Notes under the pieces: model-generated
Seen by the model: only the letters and a program-made list of their open reading frames with translations
The model's database searches: none
What the model was told of the DNA's origin: nothing
Shown: positions 1-13,218 of the stretch, in pieces
How positions within the stretch are numbered: position 1 is the first letter of the stretch
How the letters are laid out: each line of letters starts with the position of its first letter
Translations under genes and position numbers: made by a program
DNA from: Promethearchaeota archaeon
GTDB lineage: Archaea > Asgardarchaeota > Hermodarchaeia > Hermodarchaeales > Hermodarchaeaceae
Length of the DNA stretch: 13,218 nt
Reading direction: 5' to 3'
NCBI GenBank assembly: GCA_048939245.1
Contig: JBHLPR010000062.1
Coordinates: forward strand, 1 to 13,218

Positions 1-750
1 ATCTTGTTTTGCGAAGAGCGCGTAAGCTGCAGAGTCGAACATATCACAGCCCATTGCTACAATTAGTGGGAAAAGAACCGGGTGCCCAGCACCAAAGAGA
101 TGAACCGGTTTATCAAGAGGGAGATTGTTTTTTGCGCTTAGGACTAAATCGACTAGTTTATCGAATTGGTACTGTTCCATAAGCTGGGTTGGGCTTCCTA
201 TTGCGTAAATAGAAAAATCAAGTTTACTTATAGCATGAGCTGATTGCTCTACCAATTTCGGGTAAGTCCCTCCTTGAATTGGACCAACCCATAAAATGTT
301 GGATTTTTGGCGTTGTGAAATTGAAGCCTTCGCTCTTCGCAGAGTTTCTTCTACGGTTAATTGAGCTTCATTATAGGTCGCCTTACCACCTGTAGGAACA
401 TCTAGTATGACTGCAATGTCAGTTTCAATCTTTTCTTGAAATTGAATGATTTGTTCAGGAGTGGTTTGAACATCTCCGTAAATTAATAACTGGTATGCCC
501 CCGAATCAGTCATAATTGATCCAGGAAAATTAAGTATGTCATGGATTGAACCTTTACATTCGGCTTTTGAAAGTAAGTAAGCATTTGTTATGATGATTTG
601 ACAATCGAAATCTTGAAACATTTTTTGTGGTGGTATAAGCTCATTCGTTGGATGAACTACCGGAATGAATGTGGGTGTTTCAACCAAACTGCTCTTAGTC
701 CGAAACCTACCAATTCGTGCAAGTAAGTCTTTTTGAATGGTTTCAATCAT
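1..750 (-). CDS. tgtA: Archaeosine tRNA-guanine(15) transglycosylase, N-terminal 250 codons (runs off the window start)
   Basis: Not in the ORF track. Manual translation from ATG at 750 gives MIETIQKDLLARIGRFRTKSSLVETPTFIPVVHP...IIITNAYLL...IMTDSGAYQLLIYG...ILDVPTGG...GPIQGG...PVHLFGAGHP...GCDMFDSAAYALFAK, which carries the archaeal TGT motifs. Confidence 0.95.
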   Translation of the reverse strand, partial: MIETIQKDLLARIGRFRTKSSLVETPTFIPVVHPTNELIPPQKMFQDFDCQIIITNAYLLSKAECKGSIHDILNFPGSIMTDSGAYQLLIYGDVQTTPEQIIQFQEKIETDIAVILDVPTGGKATYNEAQLTVEETLRRAKASISQRQKSNILWVGPIQGGTYPKLVEQSAHAISKLDFSIYAIGSPTQLMEQYQFDKLVDLVLSAKNNLPLDKPVHLFGAGHPVLFPLIVAMGCDMFDSAAYALFAKQD

Positions 751-3595: not shown

Positions 3596-5671
3596 ATGTC
3601 CACGGTAATAATGGTTTGTCCTTTCCAAATTATCAAAGACGAAAAGGGTTCGAAAATATTAGCATTCAGTTGTGAAATATGTTCATGTCAAGACCCACAA
3701 AAAGGTGATATCATTGATAACGAGTATTGCCGCCAGCAGTTTCTTAAGATACTACCATTTTTAGAAGAGATTTTTACTTGTCAATTTACTTCCAGTACCA
3801 GAACGGTTAGTCTCCCCCGTCGATCAACAGAACTTCTGAAAGAGTATGTTTTGGTTGTTGAAAAATTAGAACCACATATTCAAAAAATCGTTTATCATTT
3901 CCCTGAGATAAGAGAGAAATTATTTACGGAGCCATTCTCAACCTTCAAAATTCTTGAACAGACCTACAAATCCTCAAAGGAGCGATCAATCCTAGAAATT
4001 ATTTCAGCATTAGTAAAAACGAGGTTAATTTCAAATGCAAAGAATCAGATTAGAGATGATGGTTTAACAGATCAAAAGCTCTTTCTTGAAAATTATTTAC
4101 AAATTCAGAAAAGCCCCCTAAAATATTCGAGCGATAAACTCTTCGAAGAGCCTTTTGAGCTTCTTAGCACATATGAAGTGGGACCATTTAGAGCTAGTAT
4201 TTTTGAATTTGCTCAATTCCCTCTAGAAAAATTCTATCAAGTTGTATTATCATTAGATGAAATTCACTCTCAAGGTTTATTACAAACCCTGTTATCGCAC
4301 CGAAGACAATTTTCCTTAGAAGAAGCTGAGCTTCAAAAATTGGATGCCCTCATATCCTCTAAGATTACTGATTTTACACAAAACCTTATGACAACTTTCA
4401 AAGAATTATCCAGCACTGAACAAAAGAATTTCTCAATCTATGCCATTGCACAGATTCTAAATTTAACCAAGACCTTACCACTTTTACTTGATGATGAGGT
4501 TCAGGAAATTTTCCTTGATAAACCGGGGACAGCATATTATATTGATCATGCTATCTGGGGTCGGTGTAAAACAAATCTTATCCCATCACAATCGGAGTTA
4601 TCACATATTATTACAAGATTGCGTCTTGAAAGCAGAAGACCTCTGGATGAAAAGAATCCCTCGTTAAAAACTGAACTAAAAACTGCGCTATTTCATGTTC
4701 GTGCAGCGATTGACATTCCCCCTCTCGCTTATGAAGGAGCGCACCTCAATATCAGAAAAATCCGATTACGTACCTTGACTCTACCAGAATTGGTTGCCAA
4801 TGGCACCATTTCCCTTTCAGCAGCCGCATTCCTCGTTTTATGTATGAATTTACGAATAAACATCACAATTTGTGGTGAACCGGCAACTGGTAAGACAACT
4901 CTAGCAAATGCAATTAACCTTATAGCTCCTCCCAATTGGAGGAAAATTGCTATTGAAGATACACTCGAAAGTATTTCTTTTGATGAAGGAAATAGACACA
5001 AAGTAACCTTTCAAGTTGCGCCCTTTGATTCATTCGACCAAACGCAATCAACAAAATCTAATGAAATAATCAGGTTACTGCACCGATCTCCTGATTGGGT
5101 ATTTTTAGGAGAAATTCAAACTGCAGAGCATAGTTCAGCAATGTTTCATGCGATTAGCGCAGGTATCAGAGGAATTCAGACCTGCCATGCAAATTCTAAT
5201 CAAGAGCTTTTATTGCGTTGGCAAGTCCATCACGATATACCCGAAGTGTGTTTTCAATCTCTTGGTTTACTTGTTCATATGGTGAAAGAAGTAATTCGGG
5301 GCCAAGTTAATCGTAAAGTTGCTCAGATTAGTGAGGTCCAATTTGATTCAGGCAATGTTACTTTAAAACCCATTTTCGAATGGAATAACACGTCAGGACA
5401 GCTCGAACAAATAGTGTCTGATTTATATTCACAGCTTATTTCTCGAACATGTAAGTTTCAACGGTTGAAACAAGTAGATATTCGAAAACAGCTTTGCCTT
5501 TATCAAGAAACGTTAGCGAAACTTGTATCCAAACATATCTATGATCCTGAATTAATTGTAAAGACCTTTGATGAGACATATGCGTCCAAAAGCCCATCGG
5601 TATCAGATATTGTGAAAATACATAAAGAGCGAAAAGAAGGTGAAAAATCTTCGATTATATCAGTTCACTAG
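3596..5671 (+). CDS. Type II/IV secretion / type IV pilus assembly ATPase (VirB11/TadA/ArlI superfamily); true start may be ATG 3611
   Basis: LLLDDEVQEIFLD, LNIRK, Walker A GEPATGKTT, Asp box IAIEDTLE, Walker B region LHRSPDWVFLGEIQ, His box IQTCHA, and a Cys-rich N-terminus (CEICSC...C). Confidence 0.93.
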   Translation: MSTVIMVCPFQIIKDEKGSKILAFSCEICSCQDPQKGDIIDNEYCRQQFLKILPFLEEIFTCQFTSSTRTVSLPRRSTELLKEYVLVVEKLEPHIQKIVYHFPEIREKLFTEPFSTFKILEQTYKSSKERSILEIISALVKTRLISNAKNQIRDDGLTDQKLFLENYLQIQKSPLKYSSDKLFEEPFELLSTYEVGPFRASIFEFAQFPLEKFYQVVLSLDEIHSQGLLQTLLSHRRQFSLEEAELQKLDALISSKITDFTQNLMTTFKELSSTEQKNFSIYAIAQILNLTKTLPLLLDDEVQEIFLDKPGTAYYIDHAIWGRCKTNLIPSQSELSHIITRLRLESRRPLDEKNPSLKTELKTALFHVRAAIDIPPLAYEGAHLNIRKIRLRTLTLPELVANGTISLSAAAFLVLCMNLRINITICGEPATGKTTLANAINLIAPPNWRKIAIEDTLESISFDEGNRHKVTFQVAPFDSFDQTQSTKSNEIIRLLHRSPDWVFLGEIQTAEHSSAMFHAISAGIRGIQTCHANSNQELLLRWQVHHDIPEVCFQSLGLLVHMVKEVIRGQVNRKVAQISEVQFDSGNVTLKPIFEWNNTSGQLEQIVSDLYSQLISRTCKFQRLKQVDIRKQLCLYQETLAKLVSKHIYDPELIVKTFDETYASKSPSVSDIVKIHKERKEGEKSSIISVH

Positions 5672-6474
5672 CTTATCTAGGAAAACGAGTTCCAGGAAGC
5701 CGATACATATTAGCACGCTTTTCTTCTTCTGAATTTTGTGAAGCCATTGAAATCCTCTACCAGGGTTCCGTTAATCCCTTCCACATTCAGAGTGGTATAA
5801 TGATTCTTAGTGTGACAAGTAGCGGTATCCTCACACTTCTTCTTAGTCTGTTTCTTCCTATTCTTAGCGCTTTGGTGTTAGGTATTACAATTGGCTTGGT
5901 GATCTGGTTAATTCTCTTGAACAAGATTCTTGTCAAATATCATAAGCAGTTGGTACAAATAGAAAGAGCAACACCATATGTTTTGGAAGAATTGGTCACG
6001 CTCTTTACAATTACAGGTTCTGTTTTTGAATCGATAGAATATGTATCGAAAGGAGAGCATGGTGCTATTTCATCTGCATTTGCAGAGATGATAGAACCAT
6101 TAAACTTGGGCGTCCCCCCAGAACAACTGCTCCGAAAGTATGCTATCACTCAACCGTCAATAACACTTCGAAGAGGACTTCTCACCTTTATCCAGTTCAT
6201 CGAGTCTTCGGTTGCGAATCTTGAGGCTGTAATAAGCGATGCCCATGAAAATCTCCAAAGAAAATATGAAAGAAGAACATTGCAATGGGAAAGTCGGATG
6301 ATGATAATTGTAGGCGTACTTGTATTTTTACCGATTATTTTCATTTTAGGCATAGCTATCCGAGGGTTAGCAAATCAGCCATTGATTCTGGTTCTTCCGA
6401 TTTTTCAGTTTATACTCTCAAAGATAATGATATCAGCGCTTCTACCAAAAGAAATGATATTATTGGGGGAATAA
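5647..6474 (+). CDS. T2SSF/TadB-TadC-like pilus membrane platform protein, part 1 (first ATG 5800; frame open from 5644)
   Basis: Two TMs, then a T2SSF-like cytoplasmic domain (PYVLEELVTLFTITGSVFESIEYVSKGEHGAISSAFAEMIEPLNLGVPPEQLL...RRGLLTF), then two TMs. Directly downstream of the ATPase. The start is uncertain. Confidence 0.8.
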   Translation: MFDYISSLAYLGKRVPGSRYILARFSSSEFCEAIEILYQGSVNPFHIQSGIMILSVTSSGILTLLLSLFLPILSALVLGITIGLVIWLILLNKILVKYHKQLVQIERATPYVLEELVTLFTITGSVFESIEYVSKGEHGAISSAFAEMIEPLNLGVPPEQLLRKYAITQPSITLRRGLLTFIQFIESSVANLEAVISDAHENLQRKYERRTLQWESRMMIIVGVLVFLPIIFILGIAIRGLANQPLILVLPIFQFILSKIMISALLPKEMILLGE

Positions 6475-6477
6475 AAA

Positions 6478-7137
6478 ACGCAACCGCCAGACGATGAATT
6501 TGATCAATTTCTTGATTTTCTTACACACCTTTCAACAGAACTTGCCTTTGGAACTAGTCCGGAATACGCATTAGTTAGAACTTCGCAATACTTTGGGACC
6601 CAAACACCCTGTTATATACTTGAAGCGTTGAATTCAATTATCAAGGGTACAAAAACATTTCAGGCGGCATGGTCGGAGTTAGTAACAAAATACAATCATA
6701 ACCGAAATTCGCGTTTACTTGAATTACTTGGTCGTTTTGTGAAGAAAGGGTCAGTTACTGGTGGAGAAAGAATGCTAGAAGTCCTTAAACAGATTCGGAA
6801 AAATAGCGCAATGACGAAAGATAGGAAGAACTTGATTAACAGCCAAAAGGTAAAGGTATTTGCACTTTCTTTCGTCTCCTCAATCGTTATTGGTTTAATT
6901 ACTGCTATAGCCCCCTTACTAGACTTCACATTTTATCAAGACCTATGGACCACCTCGTATGTCCACTCCAACTCGATTTCATTTTATATTCTAATCGCAT
7001 CATTTCTAACTGTTATTATCACAGGATACCGTCTCAACCAAACCGTCAGCGGATCTATTAGAACAGTATCGATTAACTTGATCGCGTTTGGGTGTACCTT
7101 CATTCTTATATCCCATCTTTTATTATCCTTCATCTAG
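6478..7137 (+). CDS. T2SSF/TadC-like pilus membrane platform protein, part 2 (track start TTG 6628 truncates the domain)
   Basis: Same frame as part 1 and open from 6475: KTQPPDDEFDQFLDFLTHLSTELAFGTSPEYALVRTSQYFG...IIKGTKTFQAAW...LLELLGRFVKKG, followed by three TMs. Confidence 0.78.
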   Translation, partial: TQPPDDEFDQFLDFLTHLSTELAFGTSPEYALVRTSQYFGTQTPCYILEALNSIIKGTKTFQAAWSELVTKYNHNRNSRLLELLGRFVKKGSVTGGERMLEVLKQIRKNSAMTKDRKNLINSQKVKVFALSFVSSIVIGLITAIAPLLDFTFYQDLWTTSYVHSNSISFYILIASFLTVIITGYRLNQTVSGSIRTVSINLIAFGCTFILISHLLLSFI

Positions 7138-7426: not shown

Positions 7427-8752
7427 TCAGGAACTTGAAGCTGATTCGATCTTTTTTAGACCCAAGCCGCGTAAGGGTTCATTGCTGGAAATACTTGGAT
7501 TAATTAATGTAATTGATGGTTCTGGTTCACTTTCTGTCTTAACCTGTGCTGAATCAAGTTGTGTCCCAGATATCTTGTCAAGATTCACCGAATTAGCTGT
7601 TTGAGACTCGAGAGATATATTCCCTTCAATGTGCACAGCATCACTTGCAATTGAGTCTAAACGATAGAGTTGAAGAGCATTCCAATCGACATCCTCAAAG
7701 ATCTCTATGTTTCCTCGAAAACCAGGAAGGACGGAGGAATTGCCTTCTAGCCCTGTCACAATTAGAAGAACCCTAACGTACCCAGCAAAATCGGGTATGA
7801 TTCTTGCACCCCAAATTATTCTCGCATCGTGTCTCATTTGCCTAGTCACAACATCAGCCACACGTGTGGCCTCTTCAAGGCTTAAATCAGGACCGCCAAT
7901 TACATGAATTAGCGCACCAGTAGCCCCCTTCACACTTAAATCGCCGAGTAGAGGAGAATGGAGCGAATTCTTCACAGCTTCGGAAATCCGATCGTAATCC
8001 TTATTTTCTGACTCGGATGCTTCTCCTAATCCCACTAAAGCCACTCCTCCTCCTGCCAATACGCTTCGAACGTCTGCAAAATCAAGATTGATTAAACTTG
8101 GCAGACTAATCGTTTCAGTAACTCCTTTCACCATACTCGCAAGAATTTCATCTGCAACACTAAATGCTTCATCGATTGGAAGATCACGAGCAATTTCGAG
8201 TAGCTTGTTATTATCAATAACAATAACTGTATCTGCGTATCTTCGTAGGCGTTGAAGACCTCGATGAGCTTTATCAATCCTAGCACCTTCAATTGTAAAA
8301 GGTGTGGTCACTGTACAAACAACAATTGCGCCATTTTGCTTTGCAATTTCAGCTATGACGGGAGCAGCCCCGGTACCTGTCCCTCCTCCAAGACCTGCTG
8401 CAATGAAAAGGAGGTCAACTCCGCGTAACAAATTTGTTAAATCTTGACGTGATTCTTCAGCGGCCGCAGCCCCTAACTCTGGAAATCCGCCTGTACCCAA
8501 TCCTCTTGTAATCGTTTTTCCAATTAGCATTTTTTTATGGGCTTGTACGTAATCAAGATGCTGTTGATCTGTATTAACGGCGATGCATTCAGCACCTTGA
8601 ATTCCAATTTGAACTAGCCTGTTTATCGTGTTGTTACCACCACCGCCAATGCCTGCCACCATTATCCGAGCACCGGGTTTTGAATAATGTGGAGTTGATT
8701 TTGCTGGACGTTGAGCGGCATCACGTACAAGTTTCGATAATCCACTATTCAT
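7427..8752 (-). CDS. ftsZ: Cell division GTPase FtsZ (FtsZ2-like by cdrS synteny)
   Basis: [13 protein letters not shown], tubulin signature [22 protein letters not shown]7 loop [23 protein letters not shown] lies 6 nt upstream and includes the cdrS stop. Confidence 0.97.
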
Positions 8753-8758
8753 ACTTAT

Positions 8759-8926
8759 TCACCTTATTGTTGGTTTTGGCGAAATTTGCTCCCAGAGTTC
8801 CTTTTTCAGAAGATCTCTTACTGCAATTCGAATCGCTTCACTGCGATTGGGGTATAACTTCTCAACAATCAAACGCTCGATTCCACTTACATACGCTTCA
8901 GGAAGATTTACAGTAATTAGCTTCAT
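8759..8926 (-). CDS. cdrS: Ribbon-helix-helix regulator, CdrS-like cell division regulator
   Basis: MKLITVNLPEAYVSGIERLIVEKLYPNRSEAIRIAVRDLL contains the YPNRSEAIR.AVR RHH signature. It lies immediately upstream of ftsZ, as in the conserved archaeal cdrS-ftsZ2 operon. Confidence 0.87.
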   Translation of the reverse strand: MKLITVNLPEAYVSGIERLIVEKLYPNRSEAIRIAVRDLLKKELWEQISPKPTIR

Positions 8927-8947
8927 GTCTATCGGAGTCACTACTAG

Positions 8948-9386: not shown

Positions 9387-9502
9387 GCGGGGGTACCCGA
9401 GCATGGTCTAAGGAACATGGGTTTCATGTTCCGATTAAAGGGGCAGGACTGAGGCTCCTGTGGTGTAGACCTTCGTGGGTTCGAATCCCACCCCCCGCAC
9501 CA
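9387..9502 (+). tRNA. tRNA-Leu(GAG) with D-loop intron and encoded CCA
   Basis: Acceptor GCGGGGG/CCCCCGC + A + CCA; anticodon arm CAGGA-CTGAGGC-TCCTG (GAG at 9451-9453); long variable arm; T arm GTGGG-TTCGAAT-CCCAC. The D arm CCC...GGG is restored after removing 9411-9438. Confidence 0.95.
9411..9438 (+). other. 28-nt tRNA intron at non-canonical position 21/22
   Basis: Central helix GGTC(9405-9408)/GATT(9433-9436), 3-nt bulges TAA(9409-9411) and AAA(9437-9439), and an 8-bp intron stem GGAACATG/CATGTTCC. Confidence 0.85.
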
Positions 9503-9512
9503 CTCGCAAAAA

Positions 9513-9537
9513 TTTGAGTTTTGTTGGTTTTTATAGA
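9513..9537 (+). terminator. T-rich tRNA terminator overlapping a candidate TATA box for the roadblock operon
   Basis: TTTGAGTTTTGTTGGTTTTTATAGA directly after the tRNA, with TTTATAGA at 9530-9537. Confidence 0.45.
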
Positions 9538-9542
9538 GTAAA

Positions 9543-9563
9543 ATGCTCCAACTGGTGGAGCAT
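9543..9563. promoter_or_regulatory. 8-bp inverted repeat, candidate operator or SD-masking hairpin
   Basis: ATGCTCCA-ACTGG-TGGAGCAT lies between the TATA-like box and ATG 9571. Confidence 0.55.
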
Positions 9564-9570
9564 AAAGAGA

Positions 9571-10497
9571 ATGCCAGGTAGTATGATAGATCAATTCAAT
9601 TTACATTTACGAAATATCAAAGCTGTTCCTGGCGTGGAAAACTCGGTTTTAGTTCAAAGAGATGGATACCCTATTACAAGTAGTGGTGTTTGGTTATCAG
9701 AAAATGAGATTTTTGGCTTATCTTCATCCTCTGCTGCAATTCTATCAGTGGCACAACGACTTCACGATGATTTATCATATATTCTAATTGAAGGTGAACG
9801 GAGTAAATTCCTTTTAGCTACGCTTCCTCGGTCAGCAAATTATTTTATTACCGTAACCACGCAAAGTCAAAGTAATCTGGGAGCTCTGTTATTACAACTG
9901 GAAAAAGCAATCAGACAATTAGATGAGACACTTTGGAATGAACAGTTTATTCCACCTTTAAGATCCTTTGAAACCTCTCAACGTAATAAGATACGGAATG
10001 CATTCAATGTTCGAGAAGGCACTCAACGTAGTTGGTCTACTGGGACTCTAAATTTGAGTATCACTGAAAATGCTGCGCATCAAATAACTGCAATTGTCAG
10101 CGATTTTCTTCAGGCCTTACCATCTGCTCAAACAGGTGAAGTATGTCTCGAAGGAGGTTACTTAATTCCTACACAGAGATATAACGAAGGAATGCGACTT
10201 CGCAATTCCACATTAACTTACACTCTCTTTGATACTTCTAGAAAAGTTGCGCAGCTAGTCAAACGGACAGAGCTAATTCAGGTTTTATGTGATTGTGGAT
10301 CGACACAGCACTTCATTTATCGATTAGCTGGTGGTCTTTTTAGTACGCTAATTCGGAAAGATGACACTCGTCTAGGTTTGCTGAGATTAATAATACCTAA
10401 TTTCATCGCAGAAATCGAATCAGTATTGCAAAAGGCACCAGCAAAAGAAAAGCCTACCTTAGATGTGGATGGTTTTTTGGAGGCAATCGCTCGATGA
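9571..10497 (+). CDS. Tandem roadblock/LC7 (MglB-like) domain protein (start ATG 9571 or 9583)
   Basis: Domain 1: VPGVENSVLVQRDGYPITS...SAAILSVAQRL...ILIEGERSKFLL...NLGALLLQLEKAIRQL. Domain 2 is degenerate: LPSAQTGEVCLEGGYLI...LFDTSRKVAQ...QVLCDCGSTQHFIYRL...RLGLLRLII. The track start GTG 9475 lies inside the tRNA. Confidence 0.85.
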   Translation: MPGSMIDQFNLHLRNIKAVPGVENSVLVQRDGYPITSSGVWLSENEIFGLSSSSAAILSVAQRLHDDLSYILIEGERSKFLLATLPRSANYFITVTTQSQSNLGALLLQLEKAIRQLDETLWNEQFIPPLRSFETSQRNKIRNAFNVREGTQRSWSTGTLNLSITENAAHQITAIVSDFLQALPSAQTGEVCLEGGYLIPTQRYNEGMRLRNSTLTYTLFDTSRKVAQLVKRTELIQVLCDCGSTQHFIYRLAGGLFSTLIRKDDTRLGLLRLIIPNFIAEIESVLQKAPAKEKPTLDVDGFLEAIAR

Positions 10498-11384
10498 GTA
10501 CATTTCTAGATAATGGTTTGTACACCTTAGGACGAAGGCAACTCGCAATCGTATTACGTTCAGTATTGGATAGATATCCGATAGTCATATTCAGTGAATC
10601 ACAAGAGCCAATAGATGCCATTTCTGAGTCTTTAGTAAAATTAGTGCCACACCGTCGTGAGATGGTATTTGGATCGGATTTTGTTTCATCTTCAGAACAT
10701 GAGCAGTTAGTCCTTCATGAAAAAAGTGACTATAACGGAGAACGAATAATTTATCGTGCTCCATCATCCGCTGCACAACTAGTATCGAACCAGATAATTG
10801 ATTTCAGAGGATGGATCATTGCTACCAGTGAAAGAAATTTGCACGAAATCGAGAATGCTTGTATCCAAACCTCAGCTTCTCCATTGATTTTACGATGTAA
10901 AGAAGGAAAACTCACAATAGAATCTAATGGAAACTCGGACTTATTTTCCGATACCAGCTTTGAATTAAAGCTATTAGAAAAAGTCACATCCGAAACCCGA
11001 ACAAGGATTGAAAGAATAACTCGAATCCTAAAACGAGCTGCAAAAGGAAAAGTAAGTGAACGACTTGAAAGAAGTCTTGTCGACCTTAATCATGAGGAGG
11101 ATAGAGTTCGACAAAGTCTATACAGGGAACATATTCAGACTTTTGTTGAAGCAGCATGGAGAGTTATGATTATTCTAATGCGTCTTCGTTTATTACAAGG
11201 AGTTGGAGTTAAGTCAGTGTTATCTGATAAAATGCTACGCCAAGCTGTTGATTACAAGGGAGCTTCAATCGATCGATTGATGGAATTCATTAAAGCGGAA
11301 TGGGGCGAGGACTTCCAAACTTCTGTAGAAGACGGGGTAGGACAAACCTTTGGGGATCGATTAGAAGGATTTTGGACAATTTAG
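10494..11384 (+). CDS. Hypothetical protein, alpha/beta N-domain plus helical C-domain, possibly DENN/folliculin-C-like
   Basis: 296 aa, ATGA overlap with the roadblock gene, no TM segment. The N-terminal pattern LAIVLRSVLDRYPIVIFSES...IDAISESLVKLVP is reminiscent of the cDENN core start. The gene call is firm; the family call is tentative. Confidence 0.75.
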   Translation: MSTFLDNGLYTLGRRQLAIVLRSVLDRYPIVIFSESQEPIDAISESLVKLVPHRREMVFGSDFVSSSEHEQLVLHEKSDYNGERIIYRAPSSAAQLVSNQIIDFRGWIIATSERNLHEIENACIQTSASPLILRCKEGKLTIESNGNSDLFSDTSFELKLLEKVTSETRTRIERITRILKRAAKGKVSERLERSLVDLNHEEDRVRQSLYREHIQTFVEAAWRVMIILMRLRLLQGVGVKSVLSDKMLRQAVDYKGASIDRLMEFIKAEWGEDFQTSVEDGVGQTFGDRLEGFWTI

Positions 11385-11405
11385 TGATCTCAGAAGGAAA
11401 GATAT

Positions 11406-11996
11406 ATGCTGATTGATTGGAGTCAACGCATTATTCAAACGAAACTGGTCTATTACGGTCCTGCAATGAGTGGAAAAACCGCTAGTATTCGAGCCTTATT
11501 TCACCGCCTCAATATTCTATCACGATTAGAATCAATAGAAACAACTTCAGGAAGAACTCTCTTTTTTGATTATGGTCCAATTGAACTATCCCATGGTGAA
11601 TGGATCATTCAGATCCATATTTGGTCAGCCACTGGACAAGATTATTATGCAGAGACTCGTTCGACAGTTCTCGCAGGAACTGATGGAATCGTTTTTGTGG
11701 CAGACTCGAATCCACAGTTAATAAGTGAGAATCAACGTTGTTGGGAAGAACTCAGGGGGTTCTTCGGAGATAGACTTACAGAAGAAGTTCCTGTCGTGTT
11801 TGCATTGAATAAGCGAGACATCTGGCCTGCAATAAGCCGGATTGATTTCATTAATACACTGGGGTTGAATGGAACGTCACAAATCTTTGAAACCGTTGCG
11901 ATCCAAGGTTCATTTACTCTCGAGATTTTACAAACCATTTTGAGAAAAATATTACTGGGATCGAATCTTGCACAACCCAAAAAGATAGGAACCTAG
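11406..11996 (+). CDS. mglA: MglA-type small Ras-like GTPase
   Basis: KLVYYGPAMSGKT (G1), RTLFFD (switch I with intrinsic Arg), SATGQDYY (G3 lacking Asp, as MglA TVPGQ), GTDGIVFVADS, NKRD (G4), ETVA (G5). Confidence 0.88.
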   Translation: MLIDWSQRIIQTKLVYYGPAMSGKTASIRALFHRLNILSRLESIETTSGRTLFFDYGPIELSHGEWIIQIHIWSATGQDYYAETRSTVLAGTDGIVFVADSNPQLISENQRCWEELRGFFGDRLTEEVPVVFALNKRDIWPAISRIDFINTLGLNGTSQIFETVAIQGSFTLEILQTILRKILLGSNLAQPKKIGT

Positions 11997-12036
11997 GTTC
12001 ACATCTCCAATTACTATAATATTGGAGAATAGGAAC

Positions 12037-12915
12037 ATGCAGATTTCTTTCTTAGAGGACATAGTAGTAACACTTCTACGTTTGGCAGTGACAGATTTAC
12101 CGCAAGATGTAACTGAAAGTCTCGAACACGCTTTTAAAAAAGAGAGAAATATGACCGCAAAAAGCCAATTGAAAGCGATTTTAGACAATATCAGCCTTGC
12201 TAGAACACAATCAATTCCAATGTGCCAAGATACGGGGATTCAGATATTCTACTTAACTGTCGGGTCCAAATTTCCTTTGATAGACCATCTCCCAACGATT
12301 CTCGAACGCGCGGTTCAAAGAGGAACGCAGGAAATTCCCTTACGCCCTAATACTGTCAATCCTATTTTGCATAAGAATCCTGGAAACAATACTGGTCTTT
12401 ATATTCCTTGGATTAATTGGAAAATCGTCAAGGGAACTGAACTGAAGATTACTACATTTCCTAAGGGGGGTGGTTCAGAAAATGTCTGTCGATTAGGAAT
12501 GCTAACCCCAGGGCAAGGAATGAAAGGGATGAAGCAATTTGTCATCGATTCAATAATAGAAGCAGGGGCTAAACCTTGCCCACCCACAATTCTTGGAATA
12601 GGTATAGGTGGCGGTGCCGATATCTGTATGAAGATTGCTAAGGAACAACTGATTCGACCCGTGGGAGAACGTCACCCAAATCAAAAAATTGCTGCAATGG
12701 AAGAAGAACTGCTTTCCGCCATTAACCAAACAGGTATTGGTCCAATGGGACTTGGGGGAGATACAACAGCCTTAGATGTACACATCGATATCGCAATGAG
12801 ACATCCTGCATCCTTTCCTGTTGGTCTTGCTGTTCAATGTTGGGCTGCAAGACGCGCCTCCGCCCTGATTACAGAAGATGGAAACGTTCAATTTACTTCT
12901 CATAAGGTAGAATAA
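12037..12915 (+). CDS. Class I Fe-S fumarate hydratase / L-tartrate dehydratase, alpha subunit
   Basis: PMCQDTG, LRPNTV, PKGGGSEN, KPCPP, GIGGG, GIGPMGLGG, RHPAS, VQCWAARR. ATG 12037 is preferred over TTG 12022 because GGAG/AGGA lie upstream. Confidence 0.95.
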   Translation: MQISFLEDIVVTLLRLAVTDLPQDVTESLEHAFKKERNMTAKSQLKAILDNISLARTQSIPMCQDTGIQIFYLTVGSKFPLIDHLPTILERAVQRGTQEIPLRPNTVNPILHKNPGNNTGLYIPWINWKIVKGTELKITTFPKGGGSENVCRLGMLTPGQGMKGMKQFVIDSIIEAGAKPCPPTILGIGIGGGADICMKIAKEQLIRPVGERHPNQKIAAMEEELLSAINQTGIGPMGLGGDTTALDVHIDIAMRHPASFPVGLAVQCWAARRASALITEDGNVQFTSHKVE

Positions 12916-12916
12916 G

Positions 12917-13218
12917 ATGGTAACCTATAATCTAACTACCCCAATCTCAGAAGAAGACATAAGAAAAGTACGTGTAAATGACATTGTATACATCACTGGC
13001 ACAATATTTACTGCTCGTGATGAAGCACATGAAAGGGCTTTGGAATGGTTCAAAAATGAAAAACAGCTCCCAATTGATCCCAATGGATTAGCTGTTTTTC
13101 ACTGTGGACCCATCGTTCGAAAAACAGAATCCGGTTGGGAGATTGTAGCAGCAGGTCCGACGACAAGCACACGAATGGAAATGTTTGAAGACAAATTCAT
13201 CGAAGCCTATAGAGTACG
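12917..13218 (+). CDS. Class I fumarate hydratase / tartrate dehydratase, beta subunit (runs off the window end)
   Basis: Manual translation: MVTYNLTTPISEEDIRKVRVNDIVYITGTIFTARDEAHERAL...VFHCGPIV...AAGPTTSTRME. Confidence 0.93.
   Translation, partial: MVTYNLTTPISEEDIRKVRVNDIVYITGTIFTARDEAHERALEWFKNEKQLPIDPNGLAVFHCGPIVRKTESGWEIVAAGPTTSTRMEMFEDKFIEAYRV

Follow-up and report, generated by a model that had tools for sequence, protein, structure and literature searches.

The question raised by positions 9571–11996 of this archaeal contig is whether three adjacent genes, for a tandem-roadblock protein, a DENN/folliculin-like protein and an MglA GTPase, encode a self-contained GTPase switch. A first-pass annotation, made from the sequence alone, proposed such a switch and called the module undescribed. 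The three genes are considered here within the window, that is, the whole stretch of 13,218 nucleotides that was analysed.

Operon layout, promoter and conservation

All three ORFs lie on the + strand. Gene 1 (9571–10497, 308 aa) encodes the tandem-roadblock protein, gene 2 (10494–11384, 296 aa) a protein with a predicted DENN fold and no longin domain, and gene 3 (11406–11996, 196 aa) a small GTPase assigned to the MglA family (group-1-type). Genes 1 and 2 meet in the junction ctcgATGAgt at 10491–10500, where the start codon ATG at 10494 and the stop codon TGA at 10495–10497 share bases, while genes 2 and 3 are separated by 21 nt (11385–11405) containing the purine-rich AGAAGGAAAG. ORF coordinates and junction sequence therefore bear out the co-orientation, the ATGA overlap and the 21-nt gap that had been noted.

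The claim that the operon has its own promoter was also upheld, as a putative assignment. A TATA-box-like element, TTTTTATAGAG, which is kept within the genus, is located at 9528–9538 on the + strand, about 35–40 nt upstream of the gene 1 start codon and after a conserved TTTTGTTGG. Its core, TTTTTATA, is identical in 10 of 12 aligned upstream regions from the same family, with the last three bases varying. Judged by consensus and conservation, the position of this putative element is compatible with an archaeal promoter. Between it and the start codon lies an inverted repeat, GCTCCA-N5-TGGAGC (9545–9561, + strand), the right arm of which includes a Shine-Dalgarno-like GGAG (9557–9560) 10 nt 5' of the start codon. 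The GGAG is invariant (12/12 aligned loci), and the left arm, CTCCAA/GTCCAA, is kept within the genus. The repeat could be an operator, or a hairpin that occludes the Shine-Dalgarno sequence. A search for sequencing runs with this DNA returned 20 DNA runs, which are metagenomes of sediment, marsh and mangrove; none of RNA was listed.

The order and orientation roadblock–DENN–GTPase were the same in all 52 fetched loci that span the three positions; two further loci, cut by a contig end, are outside this count. The 52 loci represent 12 or more families of the phylum, with identity down to about 25–30%, and this invariance is far beyond chance. Among 15 long loci (the present window and 14 loci of 5.5–7 kb), the only ORF clusters common to all were those of the trio, and no flanking gene was conserved with it. 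The first-pass annotation had named a middle gene not conserved with its two neighbours as the first of its grounds for abandoning its reading; strict conservation of gene 2 alongside genes 1 and 3 means that this ground does not arise. The conservation of the three-gene order across Asgard genomes, which it had proposed to check, is likewise what the 52 loci display. Of 301 genomes in the phylum, 183 carry the DENN-like family of gene 2, as do 47 of 76 genera, with an all-or-none distribution by family (e.g. 71/71, 74/92 and 0/27), and the source genome has one detectable DENN-like gene. Some matches to this family carried a '1 TGA' flag. Recoding was rejected as the cause because the ORF in locus L018 is uninterrupted; the alignment runs as far as the terminal stop, and this is the codon that was flagged.

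The genomic surroundings of the trio differ between groups. It adjoins the 16S rRNA gene in one large family, and in the genus of this genome it sits between tRNA-Leu and fumarate hydratase. In the unedited window, ARAGORN and Rfam (at the gathering threshold) detected no RNA gene, and a tRNA became recognisable there only once a 28-nt insert was taken out. The neighbours in the 13-kb window include FtsZ (7427–8752, minus strand) and a T2SSE/T2SSF locus (3596–7137). Bacterial MglA controls pilus polarity, and the presence of both FtsZ and a pilus-like ATPase/platform locus on the same contig, together with this precedent, would suit a trio that serves cell division or the polarity of type-IV pili, in the way of Myxococcus MglAB. 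We regard such a role as highly improbable, since neither FtsZ nor T2SSE/T2SSF is conserved beside the trio in other families, and the rRNA, tRNA-Leu and fumarate hydratase neighbours described above also argue against it.

Assignment of the three proteins

The N-terminal part of the gene 1 protein (aa 1–125, nt 9571–9945, + strand) is assigned by Pfam, PDB matches and an AF2 model as an MglB/LAMTOR-like roadblock domain. The Pfam family Robl_LC7 (PF03259) matched aa 10–85 with 25.1 bits against a cut-off of 23, and a weak signal was seen in the protein for MAPKK1_Int (LAMTOR3; E 0.044). The PDB sequence match was 7f8m, a Thorarchaeota roadblock protein (E 3.5e-6). In structure comparison with VIA-align, the top matches of this domain were MglB and Asgard roadblock crystal structures at Z 13 (9jue_D, Z 13.4; MglB 6hjm_A, Z 13.1, with rmsd 1.9 over 122 residues), and LAMTOR2/3 structures were among the top Foldseek matches. 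The Pfam search gave no match for the C-terminal domain, a divergent second roadblock/LC7-like domain (aa 161–295, nt 10051–10455, + strand) assigned from the AF2 model and VIA-align. Its matches to Mon1/Ccz1 domains, dynein LC7 and Loki profilin had Z values of 6.8–7.5, and a Z of about 7 is a level at which chance arrangements occur. A conserved C-terminal helix (aa 297–308, + strand) ends the protein.

The AF2 model (pLDDT 80.6, pTM 0.79) contains the alpha-beta-beta-alpha-beta-beta-beta-alpha unit twice, and the protein is thus predicted to be two roadblock folds in one chain. The first-pass description of a tandem roadblock agrees with this model and with the structure matches. The pTM suggests a defined packing between the two domains, from which we infer that the pair has a pseudo-dimer geometry; the beta-sheet-edge dimerisation of roadblock proteins would then take place within one chain. 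By sequence, the tandem is asymmetric: D31-G32 is invariant in the N-terminal domain only, and the MglB-like signature is kept solely by that half.

For gene 2, the AF2 model (pLDDT 86.1, pTM 0.84) has an alpha/beta domain that is cDENN-like (aa 1–145) and a helical domain that is dDENN-like (aa 148–280). When compared with 48,161 chains by VIA-align, the model matched the folliculin C-terminal domain best (3v42_B, Z 12.3, rmsd 3.5), with 186 of 199 residues aligned across both domains to model residues 2–271. Other Z values were 12.3 for FLCN 6nzd_H, 12.2 for DENND10, 9.9 for C9orf72, 9.7 for DENND1A and 9.4 for SMCR8. DENN-clan chains held ranks 1–4, 6 and 7 of the 48,161, covering both domains, with a lead of 2.4 Z units over the best non-DENN row. 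The top Foldseek matches were DENND1B/1A. In an independent language-model search, the nearest named ESM-Atlas clusters were C9orf72-like, Folliculin_C/SMCR8_C and SPA/Avl9/DENND11, neighbours that serve as a lead rather than as a profile match. HMMER searches found no Pfam or NCBIfam family for gene 2, and no DENN-clan Pfam family at E <= 1 in 23 members of its family. A family profile searched against PDB sequences returned no DENN protein, only chance-level GGDEF and KaiC rows. With the HMMER link absent, the DENN assignment draws on predicted structure and language-model features, and on these the protein is predicted to share its cDENN+dDENN fold with folliculin, C9orf72 and DENND proteins.

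A longin (uDENN) domain is missing from this protein. The alpha/beta domain starts at about residue 10, and the matches begin past the longin domains of FLCN, DENND10, C9orf72 and DENND1A (from chain positions 347, 159, 200 and 172, respectively). Neither the model nor the structure matches include an arginine-finger-bearing domain. The earlier description of a DENN/folliculin-like core lacking a longin domain is therefore supported by the AF2 model, VIA-align, Foldseek and language-model features together. No fused longer form of the DENN-like family (528–2000 aa) was found, which is weak evidence. Members of 370–434 aa do exist by exhaustive search; none of them has a Pfam domain, so that no roadblock–DENN fusion was seen.

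The same structure search raised another reading of gene 2. GspE/FlaI-type P-loop ATPases align over both domains with Z 9.4–9.8, and the similarity is therefore partly one of common alpha/beta architecture. The protein could then be non-homologous to DENN, namely a P-loop/AAA+-like alpha/beta domain, degenerate and capped by a helical lid, in which nucleotide binding has been lost, its DENN likeness reflecting convergence or a very old shared fold. GspE, FlaI, clamp-loader and RarA-type ATPases do fill most of the structure-search rows, at Z 7–9.8, and the lack of a DENN family by HMMER would be expected on this reading. Nevertheless we consider it very unlikely. DENN-clan chains come first (Z 12.2–12.3) with nearly the whole folliculin DENN chain aligned over both domains, whereas the ATPase matches are mostly confined to aa 1–150. 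A Walker A motif is absent from gene 2: none follows strand 1, and the loop there is variable in the alignment. The language-model neighbours are DENN-clan families and not ATPases. An independent group also assigned DENN by sensitive profile methods, according to the available text of its preprint (10.1101/2020.10.19.343400).

Gene 3 was matched by phmmer against the PDB to T. thermophilus MglA (3t12_A, E 1.3e-26, aa 3–183) and M. xanthus MglA (E 1.5e-23); outside MglA the best match was Arf1 (3e-5), so that MglA leads Arf/Rab by >20 orders of magnitude. The invariant motifs are a GPAMSGKT P-loop, G49-R50-T51-LFFD, A75-T76-G77-Q78 after S/T74, and N135-K136-x-D138. The segment G49-R50-T51-L-F-F-D aligns to ..D/E-R-T-L-F-F-D in both MglA structures, which places R50, beside the G2 threonine, under the MglA intrinsic arginine finger. 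R50, T51 and Q78 do not vary across 11 orthologues. The G3 motif, S-A-T-G-Q (T-A-T-G-Q in one orthologue), aligns under T-V-P-G-Q, with a hydroxyl residue in place of Asp, as in MglA, and A-T in place of V-P. In every fetched locus covering that position, the gene is coupled to a roadblock gene in the same operon. MglA group 1 is recognised by full-length similarity to characterised MglA, by an intrinsic arginine beside the G2 threonine together with a catalytic Gln in G3, by a TVPGQ G3 motif that has no Asp at its first position, and by genomic coupling to a roadblock/MglB gene (Wuichet & Sogaard-Andersen 2014, PMC4316618). Gene 3 agrees with the TVPGQ motif in part; by the other features it is a group-1-type MglA with its own predicted arginine finger, R50, and catalytic glutamine, Q78. 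The phmmer matches and invariant motifs confirm the MglA GTPase that had been proposed.

Relation to described systems

The description of the module as undescribed did not hold. [quoted passage not shown] As described there, its three components match the trio, and the distribution found here (183/301 genomes, 47/76 genera) fits that wording. A version of the operon work reportedly appeared in Nature in 2021. The trio is very likely the same operon, as judged from the description in the text. That text calls the GTPase 'Rab-like' and the roadblock protein 'LAMTOR1-like', whereas here they are assigned as MglA group-1-type and as a two-domain asymmetric tandem; the available text makes no mention of MglA, of a tandem roadblock or of the missing longin domain of the operon's DENN protein.

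Compared with MglA–MglB of Thermus thermophilus and Myxococcus xanthus (PDB 3t12, 6h5b, 6izw), the trio has a GTPase that belongs to the MglA family and shares its intrinsic Arg and Gln, and an adjacent roadblock partner in which a C-terminal helix follows the roadblock core. However, MglB is a homodimer of single-domain chains, whereas gene 1 fuses two diverged roadblock folds; G3 reads T-V-P-G-Q in MglA and S-A-T-G-Q in gene 3; and the trio has a third obligatory gene, that of the DENN fold, placed between the roadblock and GTPase genes.

The eukaryotic longin-DENN regulators (FLCN-FNIP, C9orf72-SMCR8, DENND1-Rab35, DENND10) share the cDENN+dDENN fold predicted for gene 2 and, like the trio, combine roadblock/longin-type platforms with a small GTPase. 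The gene 2 chain differs from them in having no uDENN/longin domain, the roadblock-type domains being on a separate protein, and in a sequence similarity that HMMER does not detect. The two kinds of domain are circular permutations of each other (PMC3521125). The arginine finger of FLCN and SMCR8 is in the longin domain, the part missing from gene 2, and the partner GTPase here is MglA, not Rag, Arf or Rab. Longin-type GAPs (FLCN-FNIP, C9orf72-SMCR8, GATOR1) have an arginine finger and a GP motif in the longin domain and a Rag or Arf client (PMC12290439); the trio differs on both counts, with no longin domain in gene 2 and an MglA-type client. As in Ragulator (LAMTOR2/3, 4/5), two different roadblock folds are paired heterodimer-like in gene 1, but in a single chain rather than as separate subunits. 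No LAMTOR1-like wrapping subunit was seen with the trio, and, unlike the Rag GTPases, gene 3 has no C-terminal roadblock domain of its own.

A proposed switch and its meaning

We think it probable, with some reserve, that the trio is a self-contained small-GTPase switch. In the proposed mechanism, the tandem roadblock folds would act as an intramolecular pseudo-heterodimer in place of the MglB homodimer. This would dock on MglA-GTP and stimulate hydrolysis by positioning R50 and Q78, contributing no catalytic residue itself. The single C-terminal helix of gene 1 may touch the GTPase asymmetrically, comparable to the C-terminal helix of one MglB protomer. The DENN-fold protein would bind the roadblock platform, the GTPase or both, such that roadblock and DENN proteins would amount to a longin-DENN module divided between two genes, and the DENN part would tune nucleotide exchange or connect the switch with a target, a membrane being the most likely site. 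Of the first-pass proposal, the physical complex and the GAP/GEF/effector roles were not supported and stand as hypotheses. Complex prediction on the trio alignments, with the DENN protein as partner, gave no answer, scoring 0.00 where the mark was 0.32, and is uninformative either way.

A more specific form of this mechanism, which we put forward only tentatively, is a working 'split DENN module': the roadblock pseudo-heterodimer would supply the GTPase-docking platform in trans, the longin-less cDENN-dDENN protein would complete the regulator, and the module would act on an MglA-type GTPase still using its own arginine finger. For the longin domains found in DENN modules, an origin from roadblock GAPs of the MglB type, which act on MglA GTPases, has been proposed (Zhang, Iyer, He & Aravind 2012, PMC3521125).

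The products of genes 1 and 3 might instead form an ordinary MglAB-type switch, with the DENN-fold protein as an effector or adaptor recruited by MglA-GTP in the manner of RomRX, which we judge rather unlikely. The MglA here already has intrinsic catalytic residues, as this reading would have it. In the solved FLCN-FNIP and C9orf72-SMCR8 complexes, moreover, the DENN domains are mainly engaged in dimerisation at the distal end, rather than in contact with the GTPase. Also in its favour, gene 2 lacks the longin domain, which bears the catalytic arginine in FLCN, SMCR8 and Nprl2 and contributes to GTPase binding in DENND1 (PMC3521125, PMC12290439), and a recent study offers a precedent, in that RomRX is reinterpreted there as an effector of MglA-GTP and not a GEF (PMC13408092). 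However, the strict 1:1:1 co-inheritance and translational coupling of the trio are more typical of the subunits of one complex than of a switch and its target, and in DENND1B-Rab35 the main contacts with the GTPase are those of the cDENN domain (PMC3521125).

In eukaryotes, membrane traffic and nutrient signalling are both organised by DENN and longin/roadblock proteins that regulate small GTPases, and the genes for folliculin and C9orf72 are linked to human disease. The trio is a further copy of a known module, predicted by comparative genomics in 2020–21. Its significance was recognised at that time, and the window therefore adds a further orthologue and a sharper annotation rather than a discovery. 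The refinement made here lies in the assignment of the GTPase as MglA-type, in the prediction of a tandem roadblock protein with asymmetric halves, and in the invariant gene order. No experimental study of a roadblock–DENN–MglA module was found in the literature searched, and the module is a good biochemical target. The idea of an intermediate has been published in general terms (Zhang et al. 2012; Liu et al. 2020/21); new elements would be MglA as the client, a tandem roadblock with asymmetric halves, and experimental proof of any kind. An operon in which a single putative promoter serves the genes for a roadblock platform, a DENN fold and an MglA GTPase is the simplest known setting in which to study DENN function and the origin of the eukaryotic DENN/longin regulators. 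Were the split DENN module demonstrated biochemically, it would stand as a living intermediate, with the prokaryotic MglAB switch on one side and the eukaryotic longin-DENN regulators (FLCN-FNIP, C9orf72-SMCR8, DENND) on the other.

Operon layout and upstream signals

The genome holding the window is metagenome-assembled (2.5 Mb, 88% complete), and the window is an entire contig. It encodes a TFIIB-like factor, FtsZ and an archaeal-type secretion ATPase, which identify it as archaeal, and close homologues carry names (Promethearchaeota, Thor-, Hod- and Hermodarchaeota) that put it within the Asgard archaea. The operon consists of three genes arranged head to tail on the + strand: a roadblock protein (gene 1, 9571–10497, 308 aa), a middle, DENN-fold protein (gene 2, 10494–11384, 296 aa) and a GTPase (gene 3, 11406–11996, 196 aa). 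Genes 1 and 2 are joined by an ATGA overlap (ctcgATGAgt), while 21 nt separate genes 2 and 3, with a purine-rich run 5' of the gene 3 ATG. The first-pass annotation had described this arrangement of co-oriented ORFs, overlap and gap, and the sequence reading bore it out. The start of gene 1 was retained at 9571, since ATG, GTG or TTG occupies this position in 12/12 loci.

The earlier claim that the operon has its own promoter is consistent with a predicted TATA-like element, TTTTTATAGAG, at 9528–9538 (+ strand), present in 10/12 aligned upstream loci of the same family. Its core, TTTTTATA, is identical in these 10 of 12, and the final three bases differ; the predicted promoter upstream of 9571 rests on conservation. 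Between this element and the start codon lies an inverted repeat, GCTCCA-N5-TGGAGC (9545–9561, + strand), which is kept in the genus. Its right arm contains a Shine–Dalgarno-like GGAG, invariant and 10 nt 5' of the start codon. The repeat may serve as an operator, or it may form a hairpin that hides the ribosome-binding site.

Folds of the three proteins

The assignments made in the first pass (tandem roadblock, DENN/folliculin-like protein, MglA GTPase) proved right when models and matches were examined. For gene 1, Pfam reports one Roadblock/LC7 domain (residues 10–85), slightly over the curated cut-off, and the nearest solved sequence is 7f8m, a Thorarchaeota roadblock (E 3.5e-6). An AlphaFold2 model built from a 22-sequence alignment (pLDDT 80.6, pTM 0.79) contains the order alpha-beta-beta-alpha-beta-beta-beta-alpha twice, at residues 1–123 and 166–288, with a disordered linker between the units and a short terminal helix at 299–307. 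The N-terminal unit matched MK-D1 Roadblock3 (Z 13.4, rmsd 1.3, 114 residues) and M. xanthus MglB (Z 13.1, rmsd 1.9, 122 residues). For the second unit, matches to Mon1/Ccz1 domains, dynein LC7 and Loki profilin reached just Z 6.8–7.5; its modelled fold class is right, although these matches are not strong evidence on their own. An invariant D31-G32 in the N-domain corresponds to the Asp-Gly pair conserved in MglB sequences (PMC4316618), and the second domain lacks that Asp. The two modelled units, the stronger N-domain matches and the N-only Asp support a predicted tandem roadblock with two unequal halves.

Gene 2 gave no Pfam or NCBIfam family as a single protein, nor when all 23 aligned members were scanned, and its family profile found no family match among PDB sequences. 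The family is small, with 98 clusters at the 50% identity level in a set of 1.84 billion representatives, and almost every one is about 300 aa in length. A confident model was obtained (pLDDT 86.1, pTM 0.84); it comprises an alpha/beta domain of five parallel beta-alpha units plus a hairpin (residues ~10–145), followed by a helical domain to ~280. When it was compared exhaustively with 48,161 PDB representatives, the top match was the crystal structure of the folliculin C-terminal DENN region (Z 12.3, 186/199 residues, rmsd 3.5), followed by folliculin in the lysosomal complex (Z 12.3) and DENND10 (Z 12.2). Further matches to C9orf72 (9.9), DENND1A (9.7), SMCR8 (9.4) and FNIP2 (6.9) each start past the target's longin domain. 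Foldseek independently ranked DENND1B and DENND1A first, weakly (E 2.8e-3). Searching the ESM Atlas by language-model features returned first the archaeal clusters to which the protein itself belongs and then C9orf72-like, Folliculin_C/SMCR8_C, SPA, Avl9 and DENND11 clusters, all of the DENN clan.

The nearest non-DENN structures were the secretion ATPases GspE and FlaI (Z 9.4–9.8), with many P-loop and AAA+ proteins after them (Z 7–8.6), which raises the alternative of a degenerate ATPase fold merely resembling DENN. Most of these matches cover the first domain only, and the alignment shows a variable loop, lacking a Walker A motif, after strand 1; we regard this alternative as very improbable. 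We conclude that gene 2 encodes a predicted cDENN+dDENN protein without a longin domain.

Pfam alone was misleading for the GTPase, because it returned just weak Arf/Roc/Ras matches. A phmmer search of all PDB sequences matched residues 3–183 to Thermus thermophilus MglA (E 1.3e-26) and also found Myxococcus xanthus MglA (E 1.5e-23), the next family being Arf1 at just 3e-5. The segment G-R50-T-L-F-F-D aligns with the MglA segment holding the intrinsic arginine finger, and S74-A-T-G-Q78 with MglA T-V-P-G-Q. Invariant in 11 orthologues (down to 39% identity) are R50, T51, Q78, the P-loop GPAMSGKT and NKxD. Group-1 MglA is defined by an arginine beside the G2 threonine, a position at which groups 2–5 have threonine (Wuichet and Sogaard-Andersen, PMC4316618). 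Because R50 lies beside the G2 threonine, the GTPase is classed by its sequence as an MglA of the group-1 type, whose G3 differs slightly.

Conservation and neighbourhood

A single-protein search with gene 2 found matches in 25/41 related genomes. In a profile survey of phylum genomes at least 80% complete, the family was matched in 183/301, in 67/90 high-quality genomes and in 47/76 genera. Its presence is nearly all-or-none by taxonomic family (71/71, 74/92, 4/4 and 7/9 versus 0/27, 0/9 and 0/9). In 54 loci, retrieved from at least 12 families, the ORFs of all six frames were scored against a profile for each protein of the trio. Leaving out two loci interrupted by a contig end, the order roadblock, DENN, GTPase on one strand was found in 52/52 loci spanning all three positions, with intergenic distances from overlap up to a few tens of bases. 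When ORFs of the window and 14 long loci (5.5–7 kb) were clustered, just the three trio clusters were common to all 15, the next best occurring in 3; the module is therefore self-contained.

The trio's neighbours in the window, namely tRNA-Leu, fumarate hydratase, ftsZ and a pilus-like locus, are lineage-specific. Upstream, FtsZ (7427–8752, − strand) with a small upstream ORF (8759–8941) and T2SSE ATPase and T2SSF platform-like genes (3596–7137, + strand) are not kept beside the trio elsewhere among the 15 loci. Downstream, the fumarate hydratase alpha subunit (within 11997–12915, + strand; Pfam Fumerase, E 1.6e-95) begins just 25–40 nt past the GTPase stop. The gap holds a TATA-like CTATAATATT, and the beta subunit follows at 12917. 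Fumarate hydratase is downstream of the trio in every same-family locus reaching far enough, but not in other families, so read-through co-transcription is possible in this lineage.

The tRNA-Leu(GAG) gene (9387–9502, + strand) carries a 28-nt insert in the D-arm region (9411–9438), and ARAGORN and Rfam missed it in the window as it stands. With the insert taken out, ARAGORN returned a clean 88-nt tRNA-Leu(GAG) whose variable arm is long and whose CCA is encoded. Most loci of the genus keep the tRNA 3' half directly 5' of the operon, and the insert sequence varies. In f9, one large family of the phylum, the roadblock gene is preceded at ~350 nt by the 5' end of a divergent 16S rRNA gene, which occupies bases 1–130 (minus strand) of the fetched loci L024, L027, L029 and L038. 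A stable-RNA gene adjoins the trio in both lineages, 16S rRNA in f9 and tRNA in the window's genus. Dozens of f9 contigs start 1.2–2.3 kb before the DENN gene, probably because the 16S rRNA gene adjoins. Among the loci fetched, f9 alone has a second MglA-like GTPase gene after the trio (L020, L024, L026–L040, L054), ~700 nt past the operon's own GTPase gene, on the opposite strand and convergent, with profile E values of ~1e-17 to 1e-29 on the portion fetched.

Proposed mechanism and earlier prediction

The firm parts of the picture are the three fold identities, the GTPase's own catalytic residues and a trio of genes that is strictly inherited together and translationally coupled. Mechanistically, the two roadblock folds would pair inside a single chain and bind MglA-GTP as an MglB dimer does, stimulating hydrolysis through positioning of R50 and Q78. 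The fusion would hard-wire the asymmetry of the 2:1 MglB:MglA complex, single C-terminal helix included. The DENN protein may join the roadblock platform and/or the GTPase, the roadblock and DENN proteins then being a functional equivalent of the longin-DENN module that would tune exchange or connect the switch to a target. Zhang et al. 2012 (PMC3521125) proposed that roadblock GAPs of the MglB type, which act on MglA GTPases, gave rise to the longin domain found in DENN modules. That the DENN protein is an effector instead of a regulator seems rather unlikely to us. A roadblock pair acting on MglA, with DENN joining as a regulator, is the picture we favour with some reserve.

The first-pass annotation had called the module undescribed, but it is already in the literature: a preprint by Liu, Makarova, Koonin, Li et al. 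(10.1101/2020.10.19.343400) predicts a roadblock/GTPase/DENN module as a conserved Asgard operon and places its GTPase in a family distinct from Rag GTPases. Because composition, distribution and interpretation match, and the window's genome has a single detectable DENN-like gene, the trio is very probably the same operon. In later papers, DENN domains appear among the eukaryotic signature proteins of Asgard archaea. Tran et al. 2024 state that Asgard genomes contain MglA-like GTPases and that MK-D1 GTPase genes generally lie outside operons with roadblock or longin genes. Within the literature searched, just one paper, an Arf preprint, mentions Asgard, DENN and MglA together, and it names DENN a single time, when listing Asgard homologues. 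The literature searched yielded no experimental study of the roadblock-DENN-GTPase operon. Our refinements are modest: a putative group-1-type MglA client, a predicted asymmetric tandem roadblock, a longin-less predicted DENN protein, and an invariant order in 52 loci without conserved neighbours. The operon is of moderate interest, being experimentally tractable and still uncharacterised.
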